Notes under the pieces: model-generated
What the model was told of the DNA's origin: nothing
Seen by the model: the letters and a program-made list of their open reading frames with translations, nothing else
Database searches by the model: none
Source: an uncultured Chloroflexia bacterium
GTDB lineage: Bacteria > Chloroflexota > Anaerolineae > CG2-30-64-16
Direction of reading: 5' to 3'
Length of the DNA: 64,000 nucleotides
Assembly: GCA_963810095.1 (NCBI GenBank)
Contig: CAWEMM010000009.1
Span: forward strand, 1 to 64,000
In this document: positions 2-47,443 of the stretch, piece after piece
Position numbering within the stretch: position 1 is the first letter of the stretch
Layout of the letters: every line of letters starts with the position of its first letter
Made by a program: the position numbers and the translations under genes

Positions 2-439
2 CACAACCCCTTTGGTATGGTGACCGGGGCGCTGCCGAACGGCAAGAAGGCCGGCGTGGCGCTCACCGACGGAAGTCTCTCGGCCATGCCGGGCACCGAC
101 GTCAACGGACCGACTGCGTTGGTGATGTCTGCAGCAAAAGGTATTGATCCAGTTGCATATTGCGCAACGCATATGAATATGAAACTCCCGCCCGATCAGC
201 TTCAGAGTCGCAAGGGCAGGGATAATGTGCTGCGTCTGGTCAAGACCCTGTTCGATAACGGTGGTTATCACATTCAGTTCAACGTGCTGGATACCGAGAA
301 GCTAAGAGACGCCCAGAAGCACCCTGAAAACTACCGCGACCTCGTGGTCCGAGTCGCTGGTTTCAGCGCCTTCTTCACCCAGTTGCATGTGGGTGTGCAG
401 AACGAGATCATCGAACGGACCATGCAGCGTTGTGAGTAG
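2..439 (+). CDS. Glycyl radical enzyme (PFL superfamily), C-terminal part; 5' end lies outside the window
   Basis: Open frame from base 2 (HNPFGMVTGALPNG...), YHIQFNV and the glycyl-radical loop DLVVRVAGFSAFF near the C-terminus; activase gene downstream. Confidence 0.95.
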   Translation, partial: HNPFGMVTGALPNGKKAGVALTDGSLSAMPGTDVNGPTALVMSAAKGIDPVAYCATHMNMKLPPDQLQSRKGRDNVLRLVKTLFDNGGYHIQFNVLDTEKLRDAQKHPENYRDLVVRVAGFSAFFTQLHVGVQNEIIERTMQRCE

Positions 440-556: not shown

Positions 557-1740
557 ATGAATACTGAAACAAGGCACGCCAGTTCAGCGAGACGGATTGC
601 CATCATGACGGGCGCCGGGTTTGTGCCAGGCATGAACGCCGTAGTTACAGGTGCAGCCATGGCGGCGGGCGAACTGGGATGGGAGCTGGTCGGCATCCGC
701 GATGGCTTTGAAGGCGTGTTGCACCCGGAGCGCTATCCCGACGGCGGGTTGGTGGCCCTCAGCCCCCAACTGGCCGAGAGCCTGGATCCCGGGGGCGGGG
801 GCATCCTGGGACAGTCGGGCCGGGTCGATCCGTTTCACGTCCGCACGATTGACGAAGATGACATGGTTCAGGAAGTGGACATGTCCGATGATCTGCTGAA
901 AGCGCTGAGGGCAGAGCAGATCGATGCCGTGATCTCCGTCGTTGGCGGCCGCGGGCTGAGCATTCTCTACAAGCTCCACCGCAAGGGCCTCAATGTCGTC
1001 TGCATCCCCCGCTCGATCGAAAACGACGTTGCCGCCACGGCCGTGTCCTTTGGCTTCAACAGCGCGCTCAGCTTCACCATCGAAATGCTGGACCGGGCTC
1101 GTGAGGCCGCGCAGTCTGCCCGCAAGATCGCCGTCGTGGAGGTGCTGGGAGACCAGGCCGGATGGATTGCCCTGCAGGCCGGTATTGCCGCGGGCGCGGA
1201 CGCGGTGTTGATTCCCGAGATTTGCGGCGATCTGCAAACGGTGGCCGCGAAGCTAAAGGCCAAGGTGACACCCGGCAGACCCTGGGGGCTGGTGGTGGTG
1301 GCCGAAGGGGCGCAGTTCGCCGATCATCCGCACGCCGGGGCGGACAAGCCGGCCGTCAACCCACTCCAGGCTTCGCTATCGCCGCTGGCAACGGGTGACG
1401 CCGGCGAGCACGTCATCTTGCGATCGGGCCGGGCCGCCGAGACTGTGGCGACCAGGCTGCAATTGCTGATTGCCGAGGAAGTCCAGCCACTGGTCGTGGG
1501 CCTTGGGTCAGGGGCGGCGCACCGACCGCGGTCGACCGCCAACTGGGGTTGGCTTACGGGGCCGGGGCAGTACGGGGCCTCAATGCCGGCAAGAACGGCG
1601 TGATGGTTGCGTTTGTCCCGCCAGACATCCAGTTCGTGCCGCTGGCGGACGCGCTCAACAAAGTCAGGACGGTGCCTGCGGACAGCCTGTTTATCAAGAT
1701 TGCCCAATCGCTTGGCATCAGCCTGGGGAGGGAAGTATGA
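557..1740 (+). CDS. PfkA-fold (6-phosphofructokinase-like) protein with divergent active-site motifs; one frameshift near 1500
   Basis: PGMNAVV, GIRDGFEG, GGGILG, GFNSA, VEVLG..AGWIAL, VLIPE, VVVAEGA. Continues in another frame as GPWVRGGAPTAVDRQLGLAYG to the stop at 1740. RBS-like gaaagga precedes the ATG. Confidence 0.88.
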
Positions 1741-2790: not shown

Positions 2791-3177
2791 ATGCGCAAGC
2801 CCATCTATGAGATGACCCCCAAGCACAGCCACTTCACCGAGGCCTTTGACATCCAGATCTGGGGAGAGGAGCACGGCGGTATGATCTGTGCTGTTCACCA
2901 CTTCGCTCCGGGCACGGATATCACGCCCGCTTTCGAAACGTTTGGCGGTTTCTGCCCGGTTCCGCACTGGGGCTACTGCTTCAAGGGCGAGGCGACTATG
3001 CGGTACGCCGATGGGGCTGAAGAAGTGATTCGCGCCGGGGACATGTTCTACTTCCCCGCGGGTCATACGATGATCATCGACAAGAACGCCCCGGTCGCCT
3101 GCGAGATCATCGAGTTCAGCAACGCCGCTGATTTTGCCCAAGGCGAGGCTGAGGTCGCGGAGGCCGCGAAGAAGTAA
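2791..3177 (+). CDS. Cupin-domain protein
   Basis: CPVPHWGYCFKG ... AGDMFYFPAGH cupin motifs; purine-rich RBS aaggaaa upstream. Confidence 0.8.
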   Translation: MRKPIYEMTPKHSHFTEAFDIQIWGEEHGGMICAVHHFAPGTDITPAFETFGGFCPVPHWGYCFKGEATMRYADGAEEVIRAGDMFYFPAGHTMIIDKNAPVACEIIEFSNAADFAQGEAEVAEAAKK

Positions 3178-8049: not shown

Positions 8050-9837
8050 ATGGAACTACAAGGGCCCAGTCCAATTACACGCACGGCGCAGCCAAAGGGC
8101 GCGAGCCGCTGGATCCCGGCGTTGGGTGCACTGCGCGCCTATCAGCGCGCCTGGCTGCCCAAAGACATCGTGGCCGGGCTCGTGCTCACGGCAATCCTCG
8201 TTCCGGTCGGCATGGGCTACGCCGAAGCGGCCGGGCTGCCTGCAATCTACGGCCTGTACGCGACGATCTTTCCACTGATCGGGTACGCCATCTTTGGCCC
8301 AAGCCGCATTCTCGTGCTCGGTCCAGATTCTTCGCTGGCCGCCATTATTGCCGCGACCATCGTGCCGCTCGCCGCGGGCAACGCCGAGTTCCTGGTTTCG
8401 TTGGCCGGGATGCTGGCGCTGTTCACCGGCGCCCTGTGCATCATCGCAGGCCTGGCGAAGTTCGGTTTCATCACCGATCTGCTCTCAAAGCCGATCCGAC
8501 TGGGTTATTTGAACGGTATTGCACTCACCGTCCTGGTCGGCCAGTTGCCCAAAATCCTCGGCTTCGATGCGAGCGGCAGCGGACTGATCCAGGAGGCCAT
8601 CAGCCTGGTGCAGGGCGTGGTACAGGGCAAGACCAATCCGGTCACCTTCGCCATCGGGGCCGCCTCGCTGGCCCTCATCCTCATCTTCAAGCGCCTATGG
8701 CCGAAAATCCCAGGCGTGCTGATCGCGGTGATCGGGGCAACCATCGTCGTCGGCGTGTTTGACCTGGCGGCGCGGGCCGGCGTTTCGGTGGTGGGGCCGC
8801 TGCCGCAGGGGCTGCCATCTCTCAAGCTGCCACTGGTGCCGCTGGAGTATTGGGGTCCGCTGCTGGCCGGCGCGCTGGCGATCACGCTGGTCTCGTTTGC
8901 GGATACCAGCGTGCTGTCGAGGACGTTTGCCTTGCGCGGCGGCTACAAGGTGGACCAGAACCAGGAGATCATTGCGCTGGGTGCGGCGAACGTGGCCTCA
9001 GGGCTGTTCCAGGGCTTCTCGATCTCGAGCAGCTCGTCGCGGACCCCGGTGGCAGAGCAGGCGGGCTCCAAGACACAACTGACCGGCGTCGTGGGCGCCC
9101 TGTGCATCGCACTGCTGCTGGTGTTTGCACCGACGCTGCTGCAGAACCTGCCGAACGCAGTCCTGGGGGCCGTGGTCATCTCGGCGTGTATCTCGCTGGT
9201 GGACATCCCGAGTGTCCTCAACTTGCGCAAGGTGCGCCCGGGCGAGTTTTGGCTCTCGGTGGTCTGTTTCCTGGGCGTCGCACTGGTCGGTGTCATCCAG
9301 GGCATCTTCATCGCGGTCATACTGGCCCTGTTCGGCTTCATTTGGCGTGCCTGGCGGCCCTACGATGCCGTGCTGGCCCGCGTCGACGGATTGAAGGGGT
9401 ATCACGACGTCACGCGCTATCCGGAGGCAAGACGGGTGCCGGGGCTGGTGCTCTTCCGCTGGGATGCGCCCCTGTTCTTCGCGAACGCCGAGGTGTTTCG
9501 GGAACACGTGCTGGAGGCGGTGGCCGACGCGCCCACGCCGACGAAATGGGTCGTCGTCGCGGCTGAGCCTGTGACCGATATCGACACCACCGCGGCGGAC
9601 GCGCTTTCAGCGCTCGACGACGACTTGCAGAGGGCCGGCATCGAGCTGTGCTTCGCCGAGATGAAGGATCCGGTGAAAGATCGCCTCAAGCGCTACGGGC
9701 TGTTCACCAAGCTCGGATCGCATCTCTTCTTCCCGACACTCGGCCAGGCCGTCGATGCCTACCTGGAGATGCACCAGGTGGATTGGGTAGATTGGGATGA
9801 GCGGGGCGGAACGGGCAGCGCGAAAGGAAGCGGCTGA
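8050..9837 (+). CDS. sulP: SulP/SLC26 anion permease with STAS domain
   Basis: DIVAGL, PVGMGYA.AAGLP.IYGLYA, NQEIIALGAAN, SSSRT; C-terminal APLFFANA...DIDTTA STAS domain. Confidence 0.93.
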   Translation: MELQGPSPITRTAQPKGASRWIPALGALRAYQRAWLPKDIVAGLVLTAILVPVGMGYAEAAGLPAIYGLYATIFPLIGYAIFGPSRILVLGPDSSLAAIIAATIVPLAAGNAEFLVSLAGMLALFTGALCIIAGLAKFGFITDLLSKPIRLGYLNGIALTVLVGQLPKILGFDASGSGLIQEAISLVQGVVQGKTNPVTFAIGAASLALILIFKRLWPKIPGVLIAVIGATIVVGVFDLAARAGVSVVGPLPQGLPSLKLPLVPLEYWGPLLAGALAITLVSFADTSVLSRTFALRGGYKVDQNQEIIALGAANVASGLFQGFSISSSSSRTPVAEQAGSKTQLTGVVGALCIALLLVFAPTLLQNLPNAVLGAVVISACISLVDIPSVLNLRKVRPGEFWLSVVCFLGVALVGVIQGIFIAVILALFGFIWRAWRPYDAVLARVDGLKGYHDVTRYPEARRVPGLVLFRWDAPLFFANAEVFREHVLEAVADAPTPTKWVVVAAEPVTDIDTTAADALSALDDDLQRAGIELCFAEMKDPVKDRLKRYGLFTKLGSHLFFPTLGQAVDAYLEMHQVDWVDWDERGGTGSAKGSG

Positions 9838-12012: not shown

Positions 12013-14755
12013 ATGTCAACAGATAAGACGAGTACGGGCACGGGGTTTGTGGACGTGACCGAGCAGAAGCGGCTGAACGATGCCCGGGAGAAGGGCATCC
12101 CCTGGAAGAAGTGGGGACCCTACCTTAGCGAGCGGCAGTGGGGCACGGTGCGGGAAGACTACAGCACGGACGGCAATGCCTGGGCCTACTTCAGCCACGA
12201 CCAGTCTCGCTCGCGCGCCTACCGCTGGGGCGAGGACGGCCTGGGCGGGATCTCCGACGACGAGCAGCGGCTCTGCTTTGCGCTCGCGCTCTGGAACGAG
12301 CACGACGCGATCCTCAAGGAACGCGCCTTCGGTCTGACCAACAGCGAGGGCAACCACGGCGAAGACGTCAAAGAGTACTACTTCTATCTCGACTCGACGC
12401 CGACGCACTCGTACATGAAATACCTGTACAAGTACCCGCAGCGGGCGTTCCCCTACGGCGACCTGATCGAAACGAACGGACGCCGGGGGCGGCAGGATTT
12501 CGAGTACGAGCTGATCGACACGGGCATCTTCGACGACAACCGGTACTTCGACGTCTTTCTGGAATACGCCAAGGCCGGGCCGGACGACATCCTGATCCAG
12601 GTCACAGTCCACAACCGCGGGCCGGAAGCCGCCAGGCTCCAGGTGCTCCCGACGCTCTGGTTTCGGAACACGTGGTCGTGGAAAAAAGGGACAGCCAAAC
12701 CGAACCTGCATGAAGCCGGTGGGGCGGTTCGCGCGTCACACAGTGAGCTCGGCGAGTACACCCTGTACTGCGATGGCGCACCGGAGCTTCTCTTCACCGA
12801 GAACGAGAGCAACGCTCAGCGCCTCTGGGGCCAGCCGAATGCTTCGCCCTGGGTCAAGGACGCGTTCCACCGCTACGTCGTGTCGGGCGAGAGTGGCGCG
12901 GTCAACCCGGCCAGGACCGGCACGAAGGCCGCCGCCCGCTACATCCTGGATGTGCCCGCGGGCGGGCTCCTCCGTGGTGCGCCTCCGCCTGTCTGCCTCC
13001 GCGCAGGCGGCCCCGTTCGGCGACTTCGACGCGACATTCGCCGCGCGCCTCACCGACGCGGACGAGTTCTACCAGCGGATCACGGCCCGTTCGCTGAGTG
13101 AGGACGAGCGGCTGGTTCACCGGCAGGCGCTCGCCGGCATGCTCTGGGGCAAGCAGTATTACCTGTTCGACGTGGACACCTGGCTCAAGGAGCACGACGC
13201 GCACCCGCTGCTGGGCGGCCTGAACAAGGTGCGGAACGCCGATTGGTTCCATATGTTCAACGGCGACGTGATCTCGATGCCCGACAAGTGGGAGTACCCC
13301 TGGTACGCGGCCTGGGATCTGGCGTTCCACACGATTTCGCTCGCGCTGGTGGACTTCGACTTCGCTAAGGAACAGCTCCTGTTAATGCTGCGCAGTCTCT
13401 ATTTCCACCCCAACGGGCAGATTCCCGCCTACGAGTGGAACTTCAGCGACGTGAACCCGCCCGTCCACGCCTGGGCCACCCTGTACCTGTTTAAGGTCGA
13501 GCAGACTCTGGGCCGCGAGGACGTCAAGTTCCTCGAGCGCGCGTACAACGGCCTCAAGCTCAACTTCAACTGGTGGGTCAACCGTAAGGACCCGCAAGGG
13601 CGCAACGTCTTCGCCGGTGGTTTCCTGGGTCTCGACAATATCGGCGTCTTCGACCGCAGCGCGCAGCTGCCCACGGGCGGCTCACTCGAGCAGGCCGACG
13701 GCACCGCCTGGATGGCCTTCTACTGCCAGAACATGATCGAAATGGCCCTCATTCTGGCCGAGCACGACCCGCAGTATGAGGAAGACGCGTTCAACTTCCT
13801 GCAGCACTTCATGTGGATCGCCTTTGCGATGGACCGGATCGGCGACCATCACGATGAGATGTGGGACGAGGAGGACGGCTTCTTTTACGATGTGCTGCGC
13901 CTGCCCGACGGCTCAGCCACGCGCCTGAAGGTTCGCTCCATGGTGGGGCTGCTCCCGCTGTGCGCAAGCACGGTGTTCGAGCCAGACTACACGACCAAGT
14001 TCCCCAGGTTGATGGAGTTGATCAAGCTGTTCAGCGAGCGTTACCCCGAGGTGTTGGCCCAGGTCGCGCCTTCTCCAGACGGCTACATTGGCTACGGCGG
14101 GCGCCGCTCGCTTTCCCCGCTGTCCAAGACGCGCCTCGAACGAGTCTTGCGCTATCTGCTGGACGAGAACGAGTTCCTCGGTCCGTACGGCATCCGGTCC
14201 CTCTCCAAGTATCACCAGGAGCACCCATTCGCGGTCCAGGCCGGCGGTCAGACCTTCGGCGTGTCGTATGTACCGGCCGAATCAGACACGGGCATGTTTG
14301 GCGGCAACTCCAATTGGCGGGGACCCGTCTGGATGCCGGTCAACGTGCTCATCGTGCGCGGGCTGCTGAACCTCTACGGGTTCTACGGCGACGACTTCAC
14401 GGTCGAGTGTCCAACGGGTTCGGGAGTCCGGATGACGCTCTTCGAGGTGGCTAAGGAGATCTCCCGGCGGCTCGCCAGCATCTTCCTGCGGGACGAGAAG
14501 GGGCGCCGGCCTGTCTACGGCGGCGCTGCGAAGTTCCAGGATGACCCGCACTGGCGCGACCTGATCCTGTTCTACGAGTACTTCCACGGCGACAACGGCG
14601 CGGGGCTGGGCGCGAGCCATCAGACCGGTTGGACGGGGACCATCGCCCGCCTGCTGGACTTGTTTGGCCGGGTCGGGCCGTCTGATGTGCTGCTTACGCC
14701 GAAGGAACGCACGATTGAACGCCTCGTCCGCGAGCAGGTCGGCGGGAACGAATAG
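12013..14755 (+). CDS. GH63/MGH1-like glucosidase; frameshift near 12965
   Basis: [70 protein letters not shown]; split over ORFs 12013..13101 and 12710..14755. Confidence 0.9.
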
Positions 14756-17153: not shown

Positions 17154-17219
17154 GCTCAGTTGCGTCCTCGATTCTTGCTGGCCGCAATGGTCTAGCATGT
17201 CATCGAAAGGAGACATTGG

Positions 17220-19583
17220 ATGGCCATAAAGACGTACAAAGACGGGACCCCGTTCACCGGCGTCATCGGACGCACGACAGAAGAATCATCGCCGGCCTGG
17301 CCCGAGCCGTCGCGCCCCCGGAAGGTGCACCCAACGTGCTGTTCTTCGTGCTGGACGACGTAGGCTACGGGCAGTTGTCCAGCTTCGGCGGGCTGGTGGA
17401 GACGCCCGTGCTGGACAGCCTCGCAGCAGATGGTCTGCGCTACACCAACGTGCACACCACGGCGTTGTGCTCGCCCTCGCGTGGCTGCATCCTGACCGGG
17501 CGCAACCACCACTCGATCGGCCTGGCCTCGATCACCGAGACCTCCACGGGATACCCCGGCTACAACGGCATCCTGCCCTTCGACAAGGGCATGCTCAGCG
17601 AGATGCTGGCGCCGAAGGGCTACAACACCTTCTGCGTCGGTAAGTGGCACCTGACCCCCCCGGAGCACATGACGCCCGCCGGCCCCTACGACCGCTGGCC
17701 GCTGGGCCGAGGCTTCGAGCGCTATTACGGCTTCATGGGCGGCGAGACCAACCAATGGTATCCGGAGCTGACCTACGACAACCATGAGGTCGAGCAGCCC
17801 AAGTCACCGGAAGAGGGCTACCACCTGAGCATCGACCTGGCCGACAAGGCGATCGAATTCATCCAGGACGCGCACGTCAACGCGCCGGACAAGCCGTTCT
17901 TCCTCTACTACGCCACGGGCGCCGGCCATGCCCCGCACCACGTGCCCAAAGAGTGGGCGGACAAGTACAAGGGCAGGTTCGACATGGGCTGGGACGAGTA
18001 TCGCAAGATCGTGCACCAGCGCCAGCTCGAGATGGGGATCATCCCGCCGGGCGCCGAGCTGTCAGCGCACGATCCCGACGTTCCGGCTTGGGACACGCTC
18101 GAACCGGACGCCAAGCGGCTCTTTGCCCGCATGATGGAAGTGTTCGCCGGCTTCATGAGTTTCACGGATTACCACTTCGGGCGCATCCTCGAGTTTCTCA
18201 AAGAGATCGGCGAGTTGGACAACACGCTCATCATGGTTGTCTCCGATAACGGCGCCAGTTCGGAGGGCGGACCGGTCGGGTCGCTCAACGAGATGTTCTT
18301 CTTTAACAACGCCAAGGAGACGCTGGCAGATAACCTCGCAATGATCGACAAGTTGGGCAGCCCCGACACGTTGAACCACTACGCGTGGGGCTGGACGAAC
18401 GCGGGCAACACGCCGTTCCGCCGCTGGAAGCGCGAGACCTATCGGGGCGGCACGACCGACCCGTGCATCGTGTCCTGGCCCAAGGGCATCCAGGCGCGCG
18501 GCGAAGTCCGGACCCAGTACGCTCATATCATCGACTTTGTGCCGACCGTTTTGGAGGCCCTGGGCACCGACGCACCACAGAGCATTCGCGGTGTAACGCA
18601 GGCGCCGCTCGACGGCATCAGCTTCGCTCACACCTTCAACGACGCGACTGCCCTTAGCAACCACCACACGCAGTACTTCGAGATGTTCGGCCACCGGTCG
18701 ATCTACCACAACGGCTGGCGAGCGGTTTGTCCGTGGCCCGGACCCAACTTCACGGAGGCCGCCAAGAAGGGTCGCGCGTTCGGCTCCCCGATCCCCAACG
18801 ACGTGCTACAAGATATCGAGGCCAACGACTGGGAGCTTTACCACATCGACGAGGACTACTCGGAGTGCCATGACGTGGCCGCCGCAAACCGCGACAAGCT
18901 GATCGAAATGATCGGCCGCTGGTGGGCCGAGGCGGGCAAGTACAACGTGCTGCCGATCGATGGCGATGTTCGCAGCCGGCTCAACGTGGAACGCCCGACG
19001 ATTGCCAAGCCACGGAACAAGATTGTCTATTACCCGGGCGGGTCGTCGGTCCCCTTTGCTGCCACGCCCAAGATCTATAACCGGCCGTGGAGCGTTACAG
19101 CCGACGTCGTGATCCCGGAGGGCGGCGCCGAGGGCGTGCTGTTGGCCCAAGGTGGCCGCTCGGGCGGTTTCTCCTTCTTCGTCAAAGATCACAGACTCTA
19201 CTTCCTATACAACTGGCTAGGCCACGACAGGTTCTGGCTCAAGTCCGAGGCGCAGATTCCCGAAGGCGAAGTTGAGTTACGCTACGAGTTCGAGCCATGC
19301 GGTGCGCCCAATATTGCCGAGGGGAAGGGAGTTCCCGCCGCGGGGTCAGTTGTACATCGACCGCAAGCTGGTAGCCAGCATCAACATGCCTTTCTCGATC
19401 CTGGTCATCTTCGGCACTGAGGGCCTAACCTGCGGCTATGACGGCGGCGATCACGTGGCCGCCGAGGAGTATAGCGATGAGTTCCGCTTCAGCGGGACCA
19501 TCAAGCGCGTCACCCTGGATCTGTCCGGCGAGTTGATCGAGGATAGTGAGGCTGACCTGAAGGTCGCCATGGCGCGGCAGTAG
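17220..19583 (+). CDS. Cytoplasmic arylsulfatase (Cys-type) with C-terminal beta domain; frameshifts near 17316 and 19340
   Basis: MAIKTYKDGTPFTGVIGRTTEESSPAWP, then PNVLFFVLDDVGYG, CSPSRGCILTGR (CxPxR), GKWH, GHAPHH, SDNG, ...KVAMARQ; AGGAG RBS; no signal peptide. Confidence 0.92.
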
Positions 19584-36307: not shown

Positions 36308-37204
36308 TCAGACGCTCTGCGTCTCGGTGAGTACATCGCGAAAAGCGCGCGCGGCCGGGCTGAGAGTACGACCGATAAGCCGCACCCGCGTAAAGGTGCG
36401 GCGCATATCGAGGCCTTTAACCGGCAGAATCACGAGTCTGCCGAGGCGGAGTTCATCGACGATCGTCGCGCGCGAGACGATCGCCAAACCCAGTCCGGCC
36501 GCAACTGTTTCCTTGATCGCCTCCGTGCTGCCCAGCTCCACCGTATGCTTCAACTGAATCCCTCTCTGGGCGAGCGCGGCTTCGCCGACTTCGCGCGTGC
36601 CTGAACCCACCTCGCGAATTAGAAACAGCTGGTCTTCCAGCATGCTGGCCGGCAACGGTTCTGCAGCCGCGGTGCGGACAAGGGGATGGCCTGGGGCTGC
36701 GATTAGGACCAACTCGTCAGGCCGCCACGCTTCACACTCGATGCGTTCGTCGGCGACCGGTCCCTCTACCAGCGCGACGTCCAACTGGTACTCGAGGAGC
36801 AGGCCCAGGATGGTCTGCGTGTTCTGGATCGTGAGGCGCAGGTCGATAGCCGGATGGCTGCCCAGAAAGGCCGCAATGACCGGCGGCAACAAGTAGGCCG
36901 CAATCGTCGTGCTCGATCCGACGCGGAGAGTGCCGCGGTGCAAGCCCCGCAGTGCCTGCAAATCCTCTTCGGCAGTCTGCTCGACAGATAGGATGGCCCG
37001 CCCCCGCTCAGCCAGCAGCGCGCCCGCCTCGGTAAGAGCCAGCTTGCCCGCGCCACGCTCGAACAACGGCACACCCAACTGGTTCTCGAGTTCCTTCACG
37101 GCCTTACTGACGGCGGGCTGGCTGATGTACAGAACCTCCGCAGCGCGCGAGAAGCTCATGTGCTGAGCGACGACGGTGAAGATCCGCAGCAGATGCAGTT
37201 TCAC
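36308..37204 (-). CDS. LysR-family regulator (CysL/CbbR-like)
   Basis: SFSRAAEVLYISQPAVSKAVKELE..LG..LFER, GSSTT, REVGSGTR, GSTEAIK. Confidence 0.93.
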   Translation of the reverse strand: MKLHLLRIFTVVAQHMSFSRAAEVLYISQPAVSKAVKELENQLGVPLFERGAGKLALTEAGALLAERGRAILSVEQTAEEDLQALRGLHRGTLRVGSSTTIAAYLLPPVIAAFLGSHPAIDLRLTIQNTQTILGLLLEYQLDVALVEGPVADERIECEAWRPDELVLIAAPGHPLVRTAAAEPLPASMLEDQLFLIREVGSGTREVGEAALAQRGIQLKHTVELGSTEAIKETVAAGLGLAIVSRATIVDELRLGRLVILPVKGLDMRRTFTRVRLIGRTLSPAARAFRDVLTETQSV

Positions 37205-37243
37205 GGTATAACCTCTTCTCATACCCTCATGAAAAAGATGTAT

Positions 37244-37272
37244 TTGAATTATAGCCGCAATGGGAGTAAATT
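37244..37272 (+). promoter_or_regulatory. Putative sigma70 promoter for the TSUP operon, divergent from LysR
   Basis: TTGAAT-17 bp-TAAATT in an AT-rich intergenic region; T-N11-A candidate at 37209-37221. Confidence 0.55.
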
Positions 37273-37320
37273 GTCACGAGCACTGCGAGTTGTTTGTAGC
37301 GAGTGAAGGAGTGAGTTGAC

Positions 37321-38151
37321 GTGCATCCGATACTGTTGTTTCTCGTATCGATTGCGGCAGGGTTCGTCGGGGCGATGAGCGGGATGGGCGGCGGCGTGGT
37401 CTTGGTGCCCGCGCTGACGCTTCTTGGAATAGATATCAAGCATGCCATTGCGATCAGCATCGTCTCGGTGATCGCGACCTCAAGCGGCTCAGCGGCGGCC
37501 TACGTGCGCGACCACATCACCAATCTCAAGGTCGGCATGTTCCTGGAGATGTTTACCATAGTGGGGGCGCTGGTCGGCGCGGCTATCACCGTGGCGATCA
37601 ACCCGAACCTGCTGTTCCTGGCCTTCGGCCTCGTCCTGCTTGCATCATGGACCGCGCTGTTCCTGCAACGCAACGTGGCGTGGACGCCCGTCGCTCACGT
37701 GGACGGCTTCTCGCGCTGGCTGGAGCTGAGCGGGTCCTATTACGACCAGGCCGCGGACGAGCAGATCACCTACCACGCCGGCCGGGCCTACTTCGGCGGC
37801 CCGTTGATGATGGGCGCGGGGCTCATCGCCGGACTGCTCGGCATCGGTGCAGGCGCGCTGAAGGTCTTGATCCACGACCTGGTGATGGGTCTGCCTCCGA
37901 AAGTCTCCACCACGACCAGCAACCTGATCATCGGCGTCACCGCCCTGGCCGGCACCAGCGTCTACCTGGCTGCGGGCATGATCGATCCGGGTCTTGCCGC
38001 GCCGATCATCCTGGGCATCGTCATCGGCGCATTTATCGGCACGCGGGTGCTGGTGCGGCTGCGCAATGAAGCGGTTCGCCGCTTCTTCCTGGTCGTGCTC
38101 TTCGTGCTCGGCGCGCAGATGCTGCTGCGTGGGCTGGGCGTGCGACTATGA
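37321..38151 (+). CDS. TSUP/TauE-SafE family sulfite exporter
   Basis: GAMSGMGGGVVLVP, VIATSSG, GLLGIGAG, STTTSN. Confidence 0.92.
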   Translation: MHPILLFLVSIAAGFVGAMSGMGGGVVLVPALTLLGIDIKHAIAISIVSVIATSSGSAAAYVRDHITNLKVGMFLEMFTIVGALVGAAITVAINPNLLFLAFGLVLLASWTALFLQRNVAWTPVAHVDGFSRWLELSGSYYDQAADEQITYHAGRAYFGGPLMMGAGLIAGLLGIGAGALKVLIHDLVMGLPPKVSTTTSNLIIGVTALAGTSVYLAAGMIDPGLAAPIILGIVIGAFIGTRVLVRLRNEAVRRFFLVVLFVLGAQMLLRGLGVRL

Positions 38152-38672
38152 AGGAAGAACGAACCGCGCCGCGGTCGGTCGAGCAAGACGAGGTCCGAGG
38201 ATCGGAGTGGCGCCCGCGTAACGGCCACGAGACGATCGGGCACGATAACGGCCATACCCCGGCCGCATCGGAAAGCGGCTGGGAGCCGCGCGTCAAGGAC
38301 AAGGGCCGCGAGCAGCTCAACATGGATGTGCTCGTGGGCTACGTACTGGCGGGCGGCGTCATCACGCGATGGTTCTCATTGCCGTCGGGCCTTGTCTGGC
38401 ATTGGGCTACCACCGGCTCCCTGGGGTTGGAGTATAGGTTGGGCGGGATGAACTTCTTCCGGTTCGTCGTGTCTGACGTGGCGACCGTCATCCGCACGGG
38501 CTTCGGCCCACGCCGCATGATCAATCTTGGCATTGCCGTCCTGATGCTCACGCCCTTCATCCGGGTGGCATCGTCTATGGTCTACTTCGGCGTGATCGAG
38601 CACAACTGGAAGTACACGATCTTCACAGGCTTCGTACTCGCCGTTCTGACGTACAGCCTGTTCCTGAGGTAA
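38148..38672 (+). CDS. DUF1634 membrane protein
   Basis: VGYVL.GGV...INLGIAVLMLTPFIRV...Y..FT.FVLAVL.YSL; usual partner of TSUP genes; a local compensated frameshift near 38365-38390 is likely. Confidence 0.78.
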   Translation: MKEERTAPRSVEQDEVRGSEWRPRNGHETIGHDNGHTPAASESGWEPRVKDKGREQLNMDVLVGYVLAGGVITRWFSLPSGLVWHWATTGSLGLEYRLGGMNFFRFVVSDVATVIRTGFGPRRMINLGIAVLMLTPFIRVASSMVYFGVIEHNWKYTIFTGFVLAVLTYSLFLR

Positions 38673-43258: not shown

Positions 43259-43659
43259 ACGTCCTATCCTCATCGTCTCTCTCAGCACCTGAGAAGCAGC
43301 TGTGCTGCACGGCCCGCAGCCTGTTGGGCGTGTTCAATTGTACCATCGATGTGCAGGTAAGTTGTAGCCTTTGCTGCAGGCAACGTGCAGGCGCCGACCC
43401 TGCAGACCACCCAGGAAACAATACTTCGGCTGAGGGGAACTGGGCTACAAGCGCCCGTGGGTCTATGTGAAGCTCGGTACGCATCCGACCAGCCCGGACT
43501 GGGGATGGCTGACGCGTCAGGGCTGACGCAGTGGCAGGTATGCAGAGTGTTCGAGGAGCGCGGCACGACGCGCGCAAGGATCGAGGTCGCTCTGCTGCGC
43601 GATGCACAGCAGGCAACGATCCCTACATAGTAAGATTCAGGCTGAGTCAAGTCAGTTGC

Positions 43660-43688
43660 TTGAATCTTGGCCTAGGCCGGGTTATACT
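43660..43688 (+). promoter_or_regulatory. Putative sigma70 promoter of the hybrid regulator
   Basis: TTGAAT-17 bp-TATACT. Confidence 0.6.
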
Positions 43689-43800
43689 TCGGCTGGCTGA
43701 AAGGCGTTGCTACATCCTCCAACTGCTCACATTGTTCCCTTCGCATTCTAGTCAGCCGAGAGCTAGCACCCTGACTCCACATGAAAGGCTTGCAGGCGAA

Positions 43801-46800
43801 ATGGCGAGAGCAACGAGGCTGTCCACTATTGCTCTCCTCGAGACGTCGCTGGCGGAGGTCCGGCGATCGCCTATGTGGGGCGACATGTCGGACATCTGTC
43901 GCTTGCGCGGGATGAATCTACGGGTAATTATCGGCGGTGCGCTCGCGTCGCCGATCGGCTTCGAAGCTCAGAGCAACGTCCTCTATCGCCTGGTCAACCC
44001 CACCAACACGGATGGCCTGATCGTCACCGGGGGCCTGGGACACTACGCTGGCCCCGATGGAATGCAGCGCTTCTGCGAAGGCTTCCGCCCGCTGGCCCTG
44101 GTCAGCCTCGAGGTGCGCCTCGACCGCTTCCCTAGCGTCGTGCCCGACTTCTACGCGGGCATGGCCGCGCTCGTACGCCATCTGATTAGGGATCATGGGT
44201 ACCGCCGAATCGCATTCATCCGTGGCCCGGCAGACTCGAAAACCGGGGAGGACCGCTACCGGGCCTACCGGGATAGCCTGGCCGAATCAGGGTTAGCCTT
44301 TGACCCCAACCTGGTTGCACCTGGCACCTTCTTCTCTCCCTCAGGGGCAGATGCGGTCAGCCTGTTGCTGGACGAGCGAAAAGCGACCTTCGATGCCCTC
44401 GTCGCCGCAAACGACATGATGGCCGTCGACGCGCTGCAGGCGCTGACCGGGCGAGGGATCCGCGTTCCCGAGGACATAGCCCTTGCAGGCTTCGACAATC
44501 GAGAAATCGCCCACGCCGTCGAGCCCCCCCTCACGACGGTCGAATTGCCCACCGACAAGGAAGTGCGCCTCGCTGCGGACGTGATCGAGCGCCTGCTGCG
44601 GGGCGAGGATGTTCCGCTGCGCACGGACATTGAGACGGAGGTCGTCCTTCGCCAGTCGTGCGGTTGCACGTCGGTTGCCCTGCAGCAACTCTCGGCCCCG
44701 TATCCACGCCCGCGCGCAGAGGGTCCGCAGGCGCAGGTCCTCCCACCGGAGCACGGCAGCGATGCGGTGTTAGGATGGCCGTCCTCCCTCGCCGCACACC
44801 GGCCCGCCGTCCTGGAAGAGATGGCCAAGGTGTGTGGGCCCTCGCGCGGGGCTGGTCGGGCCCCCCTGGAGTCTATCTGGGACGCGTTCGCCGAGGACCT
44901 CTTCTCGGGCTGCAGCACGCACCTGATGGCGGCGCTCGAGGAACTCGCCCGCGACGAGCCCGGCCACGGGATGGACCCGTACGAGTGGCAGGGCGTTATC
45001 TCGTCGCACCGGCGCCACACGCAGCCGCTGCTGCTGGGCACCGGTTTCCTGCAGCAGGCCGAAACGCTGTGGCAGCGCGCACGCGTGTTTCTCGCCGAAC
45101 GTGCACTGATTCTTGAAGCACAGCGGCAGTATGCGGCGGACCAGTTGAACGGGACCTTGCTGTCGGTGGGCGAACGGCTGGTCACCGCATTCGACCTGAC
45201 CGCGCTCATGGACGCAGTGGCACGCGAGCTGCCGCGCCTCGGCATCCCGGCCTGCTATATTGCGTTATACCAGGCCGCTGACCCTTTGTCGGCCGACTCG
45301 AGACTGGTGCTGGCTTACGACGAGCACGGACGCCTGCCCCTTGGGCCAGACGGCCTCCTCTTCTCGACTGCCGCCATTCTCCCGGCCCAAGTTCTGCCCG
45401 GCGACCGCAGGTTCACGCACTTGCTGCTCTCGTTGCACTTTCACGAGCAGCAGTTGGGTTACGTCATCTTCGAGCCCGGCCCGCACAATCCCGTGATCTA
45501 CGAGACCCTGTCGCTCCAACTGAGCACGGCGCTCAAGGGTGCGCTGCTCGTCGAAGAGATGCAAAGAGCGCGCGAGACCGCGCTGCAGGCGAAGGCGATT
45601 GCCGAGAGAGCCGATCAGCTCAAGACGCGTCTATTGGCCAACGTAACGCACGAGCTGCGCACCCCCCTCAATGTCATCCTGGGCTACAGCCGGATGGCGC
45701 TCGTCGATCCGAACCCGCACGGCTACGACCTGCCTCCCGGCTTGCGCAACGATCTCGAGAACATCCGGGGTTCCGCCGAGCACCTGACGCGGCTGATCAG
45801 CGACCTGCTGGACCTATCACGGGCCGAGATCGGCGAGTTGGACCTGTTTCCCGAGCCGCGTCACGCCGCGCACATTTCTGCAGCTAGCGTTTTCGACGAT
45901 GGCCGACAGCGTGCGGCCGAATCCCGCAGTTGCCTGGCGCCTGGAGCTTCCCCCGCGGCTGCCCATCATCCTGGCCGACCCCACCCGATTGCGCCAGATC
46001 GTGCTCAACCTCCTGAGCAATGCGCACAAGTTCACCGAGTCAGGCGAAATCGTTCTGGGAGCGGAGGTAGCGCCGCCTCATCTGCACATCTGGGTGCGCG
46101 ATACGGGGCCTGGCATCCCGATCGACCGCCAGGAACGCGTCTTCGAGCCCTTCTTCACGGAAGGGTACGCGAGCCGCCGGCCCGAGGGGATCGGCCTGGG
46201 CCTGACGATCACTCGGCAACTGGTCGCGCTGCACGGCGGCTCGCTCTCGCTCGAGAGTCAGGCGGGGAAAGGCAGTGTCTTCCACCTCTACCTGCCCCTG
46301 CCCAGCTTGGGCGGACGCCGGATTATCCCCCCTGCGCAACGCTCGGACACCGCGAAGGCCGGTCTCCTGCTGGTTTCGAGTAAGGATGCCACGATTGCAG
46401 AATTGGCAGCGCTTGCAGGGCCAGCAGGCTGGCCGGTGTGGCGCATCCGTTCTCAGGCAGACCTGGGCGGGCTCCTCGACGCAGTCGCCCCCGTTGCGAT
46501 TGTCTGGGACCTGACGTACGCCCGGCCAGGAGACTGGCCGCTGATCCAGCACATCCGCAACCATCCGCACCTGTGCAACGTCCCGTTCATCCTGTATGAG
46601 AAGGAAACCGGCGAGGCGTCCCGTCTCACCAACATCCTGATTAAGCCTCTCAACTCGAACTTGTTGGCCGACTTGATCCAATCCCTGCAGCCGCCAACGG
46701 CCGGCGGCGCCATCCTTGTCGTCGACGACGACCCGCAGGCCCGCGATCTGTATTCGCGGCTGCTCTCCGAGCGGTTCCCGGGTTTCCCGATTGTCATGGC

Positions 46801-47443
46801 CGAAGATGGACAAGCGGCCCTGGATTGGCTGGAGGATGCAGCCCCTGCGTTGGTTATACTGGACCTGTCCATGCCACACGTGGACGGCTTTACCGTGCTG
46901 GAACGGCTGCGGGGCGATGCGCGCACTCGGACCGCGCCGGTATTCGTGCTAACGGGGCGATTGCTGAGCTACGAAGACATCAAGCGCCTCGATCATTCGC
47001 AGGTTGTCGTCCACTTCAAAGAGATCCTGAGCGAGGAAGAGACACTCGCGGGCATCGAACGGGTTTTCGCCGGCCTGCACGTCGTGCCCCAACCTACAAG
47101 CCGAGTGGTCAAGCAGGCGCTGAGTTACATGCAGCGCAACTACTCGCATACCCTGTCGCGCGTCGAGATCTCCGCAGCCGTTGGCGTTAGCGAGGACTAC
47201 CTGAGCCGCATTTTCAGCCGCGAGATGGGCCTGTCTCCGTGGGAGTACCTCAACCGCTACCGGGTTCTGCAGGCGAAGCGGCTGCTGGCAGACTCGAGGG
47301 AGAGCGTGACGTGGATTGCCAGCCAGGTGGGCTTTGACGATCCCGCGTACTTCAGCCGCGTTTTTCAGAAGGTCGAAGGCTGCTCGCCGCGCGAGTACCG
47401 GGCGGGGCAAGATCGCCCGCCCTCGGGTTCGCCCGCCCCCTGA
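43801..47443 (+). CDS. Cytoplasmic hybrid regulator: LacI-type ligand-binding domain, GAF-like, His kinase, REC, AraC HTH; frameshift near 45858
   Basis: HGYRRIAFIRGP, AANDMMA, VPEDIALAGFD, PPLTTV; ANVTHELRTPLN, NLLSNAHKFT, DTGPGI, GIGLGL; ILVVDDD, ILDLSMP; YLSRIF, VGFDDPAYFSRVF.K..GCSPREYR; no TM segment. Confidence 0.9.

Follow-up and report, generated by a model that had tools for sequence, protein, structure and literature searches.

We observed that a 64,000-nucleotide stretch of DNA from an uncultured Chloroflexia bacterium begins with a cassette in which a phosphofructokinase (PFK)-like gene stands between a glycyl radical enzyme (GRE) and its radical-SAM activating enzyme (AE). This stretch, called the window here, is the first 64 kb of contig C9 (G000:C9:1) of assembly GCA_963810095.1 (6.1 Mb, 16 contigs, 65% G+C), and we use the name PFKL1 for the PfkA-fold protein encoded before the AE. 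PFKL1 is probably a non-catalytic protein that serves as the dedicated partner of one AE clade. The family keeps the PfkA fold, has lost the kinase residues, is under purifying selection, adjoins the AE and has a history in common with it, and co-folding predicts contact between the two proteins. Genes of this kind precede the AE in numerous bacteria of soils and sediments and hint at a hitherto undescribed aid to radical-enzyme activation.

We assessed the linkage of PFKL1 in related genomes. A scan of one genome per species gave 453 stretches that encode relatives, and the best 80 of the 453 (64-85% identity), all from metagenome-assembled genomes (MAGs), are the loci studied here; residue and gap counts refer to the 78 PFKL1 genes called in them. 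Their record titles span more than ten phylum-level groups, with 29 of Acidobacteriota type and others from Actinomycetes, Chloroflexia, Verrucomicrobiota, Bacteroidales, delta- and other proteobacteria, Nitrospiraceae, Gemmatimonadota, Kiritimatiellia and Hydrogenedentes. Using tblastn, we found a GRE in 79 of the 80 loci (L050 is too short), upstream of PFKL1, and an AE in 79, and the PFK-like gene lay between the two. For L072 and L078, the match retrieved was a second paralogue, and the first still lay between GRE and AE. Counted over all the evidence, PFKL1 precedes an AE in 80/80 loci. The AE start fell -15 to +14 nt from the PFKL1 stop in 77/78 genes, the 78th ending at a contig end, and in 48 genes the stop and start overlapped as ATGA. 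At eight loci (L003, L011, L020, L024, L026, L034, L036 and L064), 0.65-5 kb separated the GRE from PFKL1 and the PFKL1-AE pair was intact.

A metagenome scan with divergent members gave 13 loci with PFK-like proteins 54-86% identical to the cassette type. An AE lay directly downstream in 11 of these; L097 ends 33 nt after its PFK-like gene, and L138 has an AE tail upstream instead. The other 67 metagenome loci (≤46% identity) had neither AE nor GRE nearby and look like ordinary PFKs. The neighbours of the 13 divergent genes vary between a GACVG-loop GRE, an IseG/IslA-like GRE, a short-chain dehydrogenase/reductase (SDR) and no GRE. At L093:2-4553, the upstream GRE resembles the isethionate/2,3-dihydroxypropane-1-sulfonate (DHPS) sulfo-lyases (5.9e-225 to PDB 5ymr, GCVE loop), and behind it come a divergent PFK-like gene, an AE and an SBF transporter; the gene upstream of the PFK-like gene in L094 is an SDR, and no GRE was found within 6 kb of that of L092. 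The tight link of PFKL1 is to the AE and not to one GRE. The first-pass annotation, made from the sequence alone, had raised linkage to a single GRE clade; synteny with GRE and activase was seen in essentially all loci, but the invariant partner is the activase, while the GRE changes.

For comparison, we took the AE as query against 400 further genomes of the same phylum, and 28 loci were fetched from the 27 genomes that had AEs of ≤46% identity. None of the 28 had a PFK-like gene within 1.5 kb of the AE, and a GRE adjoined the AE in most. We also compared protein distance matrices for the 40 loci with all three genes intact. The correlation was 0.74 for PFKL1-AE, 0.23 for PFKL1-GRE and 0.33 for GRE-AE, with partial correlations of 0.73 for PFKL1-AE and -0.03 for PFKL1-GRE. 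PFKL1 combines adjacency to one AE clade and inheritance with it with absence at other AEs, as an activase partner should.

Fused forms were also seen. P0271 (712 aa, a single-member cluster) has PF00365 and radical-SAM domains in one protein, and the long-read MAG loci L016, L029 and L040 have open reading frames (ORFs) of 717-729 aa that look like the same kind of PFK-like/AE fusion. Such fusions may be indel artefacts at the ATGA junction.

The window copy of the cassette and the gene behind it are laid out as follows:

2 to 439, + strand: 3' end of the GRE gene, its last 145 codons with stop TAG at 437-439 (Pfam Gly_radical, 4.7e-28)
447 to 497, + strand: GC-rich stem-loop after the GRE stop, with no T-tract behind it (best 60-nt fold -54.1 kcal/mol)
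557 to 1498, + strand: PFKL1, the PFK-like gene, codons 1-314 in the first frame (Pfam PFK, PF00365, 8.6e-54)
1498 to 1740, + strand: PFKL1, last 80 codons and stop in the next frame (aligns to columns 316-395 of intact homologues)
1737 to 2699, + strand: glycyl-radical AE, radical SAM (Pfam Fer4_12 and Radical_SAM on the first piece)
2791 to 3177, + strand: small cupin-domain gene downstream (Pfam Cupin_1, Cupin_2)

The Pfam matches to the Gly_radical ORF upstream and the radical-SAM activase downstream bear out the first-pass placement of the gene. The ATGA named there is also present, the PFKL1 stop TGA (1738-1740) overlapping the AE start ATG (1737-1739). Only the last 145 GRE codons are present because the window begins at a contig end; this fragment is 87% identical to residues 670-811 of the L067 GRE and contains the glycyl motif RVAGFSAFF. 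The three pieces of the AE match AE residues 1-161, 161-233 and about 234-320.

The GRE itself, of which window 2-439 is the 3' end, is intact in 41 loci, including L002:5392-7881 and L067:5456-7909. Among solved structures, HypD and glycerol dehydratase come closest to it, matching at no better than 1e-111 to 1e-120, and it falls below the cut-offs of all NCBIfam GRE equivalogs. The Cys loop reads IGACVGS or a close variant in 36/41 intact GREs and IGGCVPC in 5/41. GRE eliminases and isomerases are described as keeping a C-x-E motif on this loop (main text of PMC13450708); none of the 41 has Glu at C+2. The cassette GRE is thus of an uncharacterised type, and MAGs from soils and sediments widely carry it amid genes for handling sulfur. 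At L025, an isethionate-lyase-like GRE lies 6 kb downstream of the cassette.

With an energy filter applied, 48 loci have a hairpin like that in the window behind the GRE stop, 5-21 nt from it in 47 and 63 nt from it in L064. RNAalifold on 37 hairpin sequences gave 14 pairs, of which 13 show compensatory changes between phyla; the consensus is CCGGTACGGCGTGGC-loop-GTCACGCCGTACCGG, without a T-tract. Where the GRE is separated from the PFKL1/AE pair, the hairpin remains with the GRE. Rfam gave only sub-threshold chance matches to eukaryotic miRNA and snoRNA models over the hairpin region, and the promoter and terminator scan gave nothing relevant. The presence of a strong, conserved hairpin directly after the GRE stop suggests that expression levels differ between the GRE and the PFKL1-AE pair, and the element may be mRNA-stabilising or attenuating and set the GRE:AE ratio.

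These data also bear on the alternative that PFKL1 belongs to the GRE, as a structural or regulatory subunit, rather than to the activase, comparable to the small subunits of benzylsuccinate synthase (BSS) or 4-hydroxyphenylacetate decarboxylase (HPAD). Its location between GRE and AE in 79/80 loci would fit such a role, and accessory GRE subunits are known: BSS beta/gamma, HPAD gamma and (1-methylalkyl)succinate synthase (MASS) beta/gamma/delta are thought to modulate activation or activity, and the main text of a June 2026 review has only high-potential iron-sulfur protein (HiPIP)-like and rubredoxin-like types (PMC13450708). PFKL1 resembles these subunits in being an extra protein encoded in a GRE operon. 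However, they are small metal proteins that bind the GRE, whereas PFKL1 is a 390-aa PFK fold, linked to the AE, without cysteine motifs and, by Pfam, without an Fe-S or rubredoxin domain, which sets it apart from the small Cys-rich subunits. Moreover, the GRE-PFKL1 link is broken by insertions, or the GRE is swapped, with PFKL1-AE kept, the distances of PFKL1 and GRE correlate weakly, and the hairpin suggests a separate expression level. We consider a GRE subunit very unlikely, though PFKL1 might meet GRE and AE in a ternary complex.

Next, we set the fold and ancestry of PFKL1 against those of PfkA. A word-indexed search gave at least 120 homologues among the matches listed, at 74-98% identity and nearly all 385-395 aa long; the named ones carry the source name 6-phosphofructokinase. 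Intact homologues match Pfam PFK at 1e-62 to 1e-66. An AlphaFold2 (AF2) model from a shallow alignment of 11 close sequences was unusable (pLDDT 42), and we used an 89-row alignment instead, which gave a pLDDT of 91.3 except for a low-confidence insert at about 255-290. The top Foldseek matches of this model are all PFKs, the best being pyrophosphate (PPi)- and ATP-PFKs with TM up to 0.93. Profile matches and the two-domain PFK fold of the model place PFKL1 in PF00365, and the first-pass view of an intact PfkA scaffold agrees with the Pfam match over window 557-1498. Compared with PfkA (PDB 1pfk, 3pfk, 1zxx), PFKL1 has the same fold and domain order, with phmmer giving 1e-31 to 1zxx and the model superposing at TM 0.91-0.93 normalised to the target. 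It differs in lacking the GGD Asp, the GGDGS Asp, the MGR Arg (kept in 3/78) and the GH.QRGG His with the upstream Arg, in carrying an extra insert of ~40 residues (SLSPLATG...) modelled with low confidence, and in having the AE, not glycolysis genes, as its genome context.

In the tree, all cassette PFK-like proteins form one clade on a long stem apart from the canonical PFKs; a conserved clade was among the points that the first-pass annotation had proposed to check. In a library of 1.84 billion representatives there was one representative at 70% identity, with full-length degenerate members at 52-53% and 43-48%; the canonical motifs (GGDG, TIDND, MGR, GH.QRGG) appear at ≤41%. The closest homologues carry the variant and not the canonical motifs. 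Mean pairwise divergence is 0.267 for PFKL1, not far from the 0.227 of the GRE and the 0.210 of the AE. The median NG86 ratio of nonsynonymous to synonymous substitution rates (dN/dS), proposed in the first-pass annotation as a check, is low at 0.17 (476 pairs with dS <3; 600 drawn, 490 computable), with 0.11-0.30 in the 12 PFKL1 pairs of lowest dS, and PFKL1 is under purifying selection. A further PFK-like paralogue, PFKL2, is encoded downstream of the AE in 19/80 loci (for example L067:10212-11327). It is more degenerate, with the GGDGS loop reading G(N/G)QG and the Arg that matches R72 often lost, and forms one group nested in the PFKL1 tree with a low support of 0.31.

An ordinary glycolytic PFK, or a neutrally drifting duplicate of one, would be in line with the 6-phosphofructokinase names of the homologues and with an Atlas search, in which PFKL1 met only clusters named phosphofructokinase. 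Yet canonical PFKs with GGDG/TIDND/MGR are encoded on contigs C6, C7 and C12 of the same genome, the nearest being 39% identical to PFKL1, and therefore PFKL1 is not its glycolytic PFK, as the first-pass annotation had held. In addition, the variant motifs are present in all 78 orthologues, which form a long-stem clade with low dN/dS and fixed synteny, and all 11 NCBIfam PFK models score below their cut-offs (TIGR02483, 246 vs 430.6; NF002872, 235 vs 253). This explanation is thus extremely improbable. PFK-family matches occur at nine places in the genome; one, at C6:86441-88636, has 732 aa and two PFK domains in tandem, each with canonical motifs, and resembles the eukaryote-type fused architecture.

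We then examined the residues on which the kinase depends. E. coli PfkA numbers, which we take from the classic literature, were mapped onto presumably corresponding PFKL1 positions by motif equivalence. The variant motifs reported in the first-pass annotation are all in the window sequence, with GAGFVPG (nt 611-631), GGRGL (944-958), SIEND (1013-1027) and LGD (1145-1153) in the first frame and GPWVRG, as GPWVRGG from 1498, in the second. At the GGD-loop Asp position (D12), the 78 genes have Y (41), F (29) or H (8) and never Asp. Which residue replaces the Mg-binding Asp of GGDGS depends on the alignment: HMMER places R/Q/K there, and MAFFT places Gly, followed by R/Q/K one column later. In the MAFFT alignment, the first column is G in 72, A in 4, S in 1 and R in 1, the second is R in 46, Q in 22, K in 5, P in 3, E in 1 and A in 1, and neither has Asp in any of the 78. 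The catalytic-base Asp has become Glu in 70 and is still Asp in 8, with Tyr in the divergent L093 (SIYND). The MGR Arg (R171) is E in 41, A in 13 and one of eight other residues in the rest, R being found in 3/78; the R243 position is Y in 34 and F in 34, and the H249 position is P in 65 and L in 9. Part of the sugar-phosphate pocket is kept: R252 in 78/78, D129 as D in 69 and E in 9, E222 as E in 69 and Q in 9, D127 changed to E, and Lys of 'SARK' at R162 in 73/78. The Arg that matches R72 is kept in the eight commonest variants (56/78).

Taken as a set, the marks of a functional ATP- or PPi-dependent PFK, namely the acidic loop residues, the base Asp with the MGR Arg and scores above the NCBIfam cut-offs, are missing. 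Since the would-be catalytic positions vary freely, these sequence data argue against phosphotransfer by PFKL1. A true kinase or phosphotransferase with a new substrate or donor, acting on the substrate or product of the GRE (for example a sulfo- or phospho-sugar), would instead make use of the partly kept pocket, with Glu serving as the base and Arg, Lys or Gln replacing Mg2+. We regard such an enzyme as unlikely. A conserved chemistry does not fit a GGDGS loop that may be R, Q, K, P, E or A, ten different residues at R171 and a Tyr base in L093, or an ATP-loop Asp that is a bulky aromatic residue (Y/F/H) in 78/78. Furthermore, the gene tracks the AE across two unrelated GRE chemistries, or without an adjacent GRE, which would be unexpected for a pathway enzyme.

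The surroundings of the 80 loci count in favour of this new-substrate enzyme, as they suggest organosulfur metabolism. The neighbours include a CoA-disulfide reductase (CoADR)-rhodanese fusion (51 loci), an SsuA-like protein (39), an SBF transporter (36), a rhodanese (24), sigma-54 activators (24) and a 390-aa protein with a C-terminal 2x[4Fe-4S] domain (42), for whose N-terminal part the Atlas search gave hypothetical proteins only. The cassette surroundings therefore seem to have a sulfur-metabolism flavour. A PfkA-family (PF00365) sulfofructose kinase, SqiK of the sulfo-EMP2 pathway, is described in PMC9594981. The likeness lies in the recruitment of PF00365 to organosulfonate metabolism, the PFKL1 loci being sulfur-rich and one subclade standing beside an isethionate-lyase-like GRE. 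Going by its description, however, SqiK is an active kinase of a sulfoglycolysis cluster, whereas PFKL1 lacks the catalytic set and is tied to the AE.

The linked AE has distinct features of its own. Its best score is to the HpsH model, at 344 bits (cut-off 430), and it passes TIGR02494, the general model for GRE activases. The linked AEs keep the first ferredoxin-like Cys motif; most miss three or four cysteines of the second, which is reduced to C...CP, or only CP in the window copy, and the AE of L092 keeps all eight. Because of these missing cysteines, one auxiliary [4Fe-4S] cluster has probably been lost. N96, W97 and L99, which form an NW.L motif, are invariant in 31 linked AEs, and NW is missing from those columns in the 14 other AEs aligned. 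The linked AEs are thus closest to the HpsH/IslB type by model score and differ from it in the reduced second cluster motif and NW.L. To our knowledge, the characterised HpsH and IslB operons contain no PFK-like gene, and 'phosphofructokinase' occurred 0 times in the literature on HpsH/IslB activases found by full-text search.

We co-folded the AE (324 aa, 31-row alignment) with PFKL1 (394 aa, 32 rows), a check proposed in the first-pass annotation, using our own alignments. The runs gave ipSAE values of 0.54, 0.65 and 0.66 (median 0.65), and the best of three controls gave 0.00, which amounts to a predicted contact. The 0.65 mark is reached by 58/80 solved complexes and 2/110 mismatched pairs, counts that are rough owing to our own alignments. 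The runs had at least 54% of contacts in common, with a partner pLDDT of at least 82. We know of no solved PFK-activase complex, so the predictor is unlikely to have scored the pair by reproducing a known structure. The predicted contacts of the AE are at residues 38-41, in the loop of the radical-SAM cysteines, and at 80-102, in the degenerate insert that carries NW.L; on the PFKL1 side, they involve 91-106, 132-139 (the former GGDGS loop and its helix) and 364-370. The predicted interface thus draws on clade-specific features of both proteins. With the former ATP loop placed in a protein interface, the model also speaks against the new-substrate enzyme.

We propose the following mechanism for PFKL1 as a dedicated partner of the AE. 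PFKL1 would be made together with the AE via the overlapping stop and start codons, and would dock on it through the former GGDGS ATP/Mg loop, the following helix and a family-specific DPFHVR...E segment. The docking surface on the AE would consist of the degenerate ferredoxin-like insert with its invariant NW.L and the radical-SAM cysteine loop, so that the former ATP site would have become, or would adjoin, a protein interface. Since part of the sugar-phosphate pocket survives (R252, K at R162, E/D at D127/D129, E222), PFKL1 probably still binds a small anionic metabolite, and could thereby control or stabilise the AE during installation of the glycyl radical on the neighbouring GRE. Non-catalytic PFK-fold modules have precedents in the alpha subunit of plant PPi-PFK and the C-terminal half of eukaryotic PFK-1, in which the old active site is an effector site. 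These modules have likewise lost catalysis, partly keep the sugar-phosphate pocket and are regulatory, and by this precedent PFKL1 can be read as a ligand-sensing module; they regulate a catalytic PFK, whereas PFKL1 is paired with a radical-SAM activase. We infer a gating or stabilising role from this likeness. More tentatively, and with considerable doubt, PFKL1 might be the first known protein cofactor of an AE, with the ATP site as docking surface and a pocket that times the radical by sensing a phospho- or sulfo-metabolite or an adenosine-type ligand, serving at least two GRE chemistries of soil and sediment bacteria, one of them that of the Glu-less C-V-G-loop GRE, which seems tied to sulfur metabolism. 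Among the roles listed in the first-pass annotation, the evidence favours accessory subunit or sensor; a kinase with a new substrate is less favoured.

Several observations weigh against a non-catalytic AE partner. The binding of AE and PFKL1 is a matter of model confidence and not a measurement, and only 4/22 interface residues are among the 30 family-specific positions (conserved in the PFKL1 family and different in canonical PFKs), against about 1.7 expected, a weak enrichment. Adjacency lowers recombination and can alone yield a distance correlation, and locus pairs are not independent. The one fused protein may be an assembly artefact and so gives no Rosetta-stone support. The base Asp is kept in 8/78 and Arg or Lys at the R171 position in 5/78, so that residual chemistry is possible in some members, and the retained pocket residues would also suit an enzyme with a new substrate. 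Finally, since PFKL1 is frame-shifted in the window, the window copy says nothing on activity in this genome.

The frame shift escaped the first-pass annotation, which had taken 557-1740 as a single gene frame; these 1184 nt occupy two frames. The first frame runs past 1498 to a stop at 1601-1603, and the two pieces abut exactly at ...PLVV|GPWVRGG when aligned to intact homologues, so one base is missing near 1499-1503. The window piece of PFKL1 (557-1498) is 74-88% identical to the listed homologues and 98% identical to P0001, which runs through without a frame break. Two more breaks, near 2221 and near 2425-2434, interrupt the AE. Short-read contigs of relatives (90-99% alike) have +C at 1500-1503, +1 base at 2221 and -1 base at 2425-2434, and these indels restore all three frames; the contigs are not from the window strain and therefore cannot decide whether the breaks are real.

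One explanation, restricted to the window copy, is that the cassette is a decaying remnant from which no functional PFKL1, AE or GRE is made, and not an assembly error. The cassette has three breaks in 2.2 kb compared to two clear and at most seven candidate breaks over the remaining 61 kb (Poisson P of three or more, 6e-5 to 2e-3), and no PFL-like barrel (PF02901) was found anywhere in the assembly, which is 88.5% complete. A second cassette in the same genome, at C15:20261-29571 (L089:8262-17572), consists of a Gly_radical-only remnant, a PFK-like gene, an Fe-S protein, a frame-shifted PFK-like gene, an AE, a cupin, a glucose-dehydrogenase-like gene and CoADR. The 152-aa ORF of its GRE remnant has a Gly_radical domain only and takes its 5' part from the start of an unrelated gene, preceded by a Schlafen/AlbA_2 gene and helicase genes; this cassette is either a truncated remnant or a chimeric join. 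Decay is opposed by the location of the breaks at the very contig start, where polishing is weakest, by the incompleteness of the genome and by the origin of the covering contigs from relatives. The GRE fragments of C9 and C15 both begin near residues 670 and 681, at the edge of the most conserved segment, which fits an assembly break or misjoin at a repeat-like conserved segment as well as decay. Other window genes are split too: a hybrid two-component sensor (43531-47440; periplasmic-binding and HisKA / HATPase_c, receiver and AraC HTH) breaks between 45.83 and 45.98 kb, parting HisKA from HATPase_c, and a GH63/MGH1-like glycosidase (12013-14752) seems to be interrupted near 12.9 kb. Indels are thus present in the assembly beyond the cassette as well. 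Overall, decay of the window copy is quite possible, if somewhat short of probable.

The cupin gene behind the cassette recurs in L021 and L028 (tblastn, 2/80 loci) and in the C15 second copy. Elsewhere in the window, we observed more sulfur-related genes: a LysR regulator divergent from a TauE/SafE sulfite exporter with DUF1634 (36311-38669), a SulP sulfate permease with a STAS domain (8050-9837) and a 734-aa sulfatase (17216-19417).

The full-text literature searched describes no PFK-like gene with a GRE or its activase (supplements and subscription-only papers lay outside the search), and the main text of the GRE review contains neither 'phosphofructokinase' nor 'PFK', its sole 'kinase' being a propionate kinase in a reference (PMC13450708). 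The PFKL1 genes are now named 6-phosphofructokinase, an automatic annotation that our results correct. GRE activases are described as acting alone, and with a conserved partner co-translated with the AE, glycyl-radical installation would be controlled at a new, additional level. If PFKL1 is such a partner, co-expression of the PFK-like gene would be a practical recipe to reconstitute this AE clade, and the cassette would flag a widespread, uncharacterised C-V-G-loop GRE, set amid sulfur-handling genes, in Acidobacteriota, Verrucomicrobiota, Bacteroidota, Desulfobacterota and others from soils, peat and sediments. In conclusion, PFKL1 would illustrate cleanly how an enzyme fold of central metabolism can be put to new use as a pseudo-enzyme.

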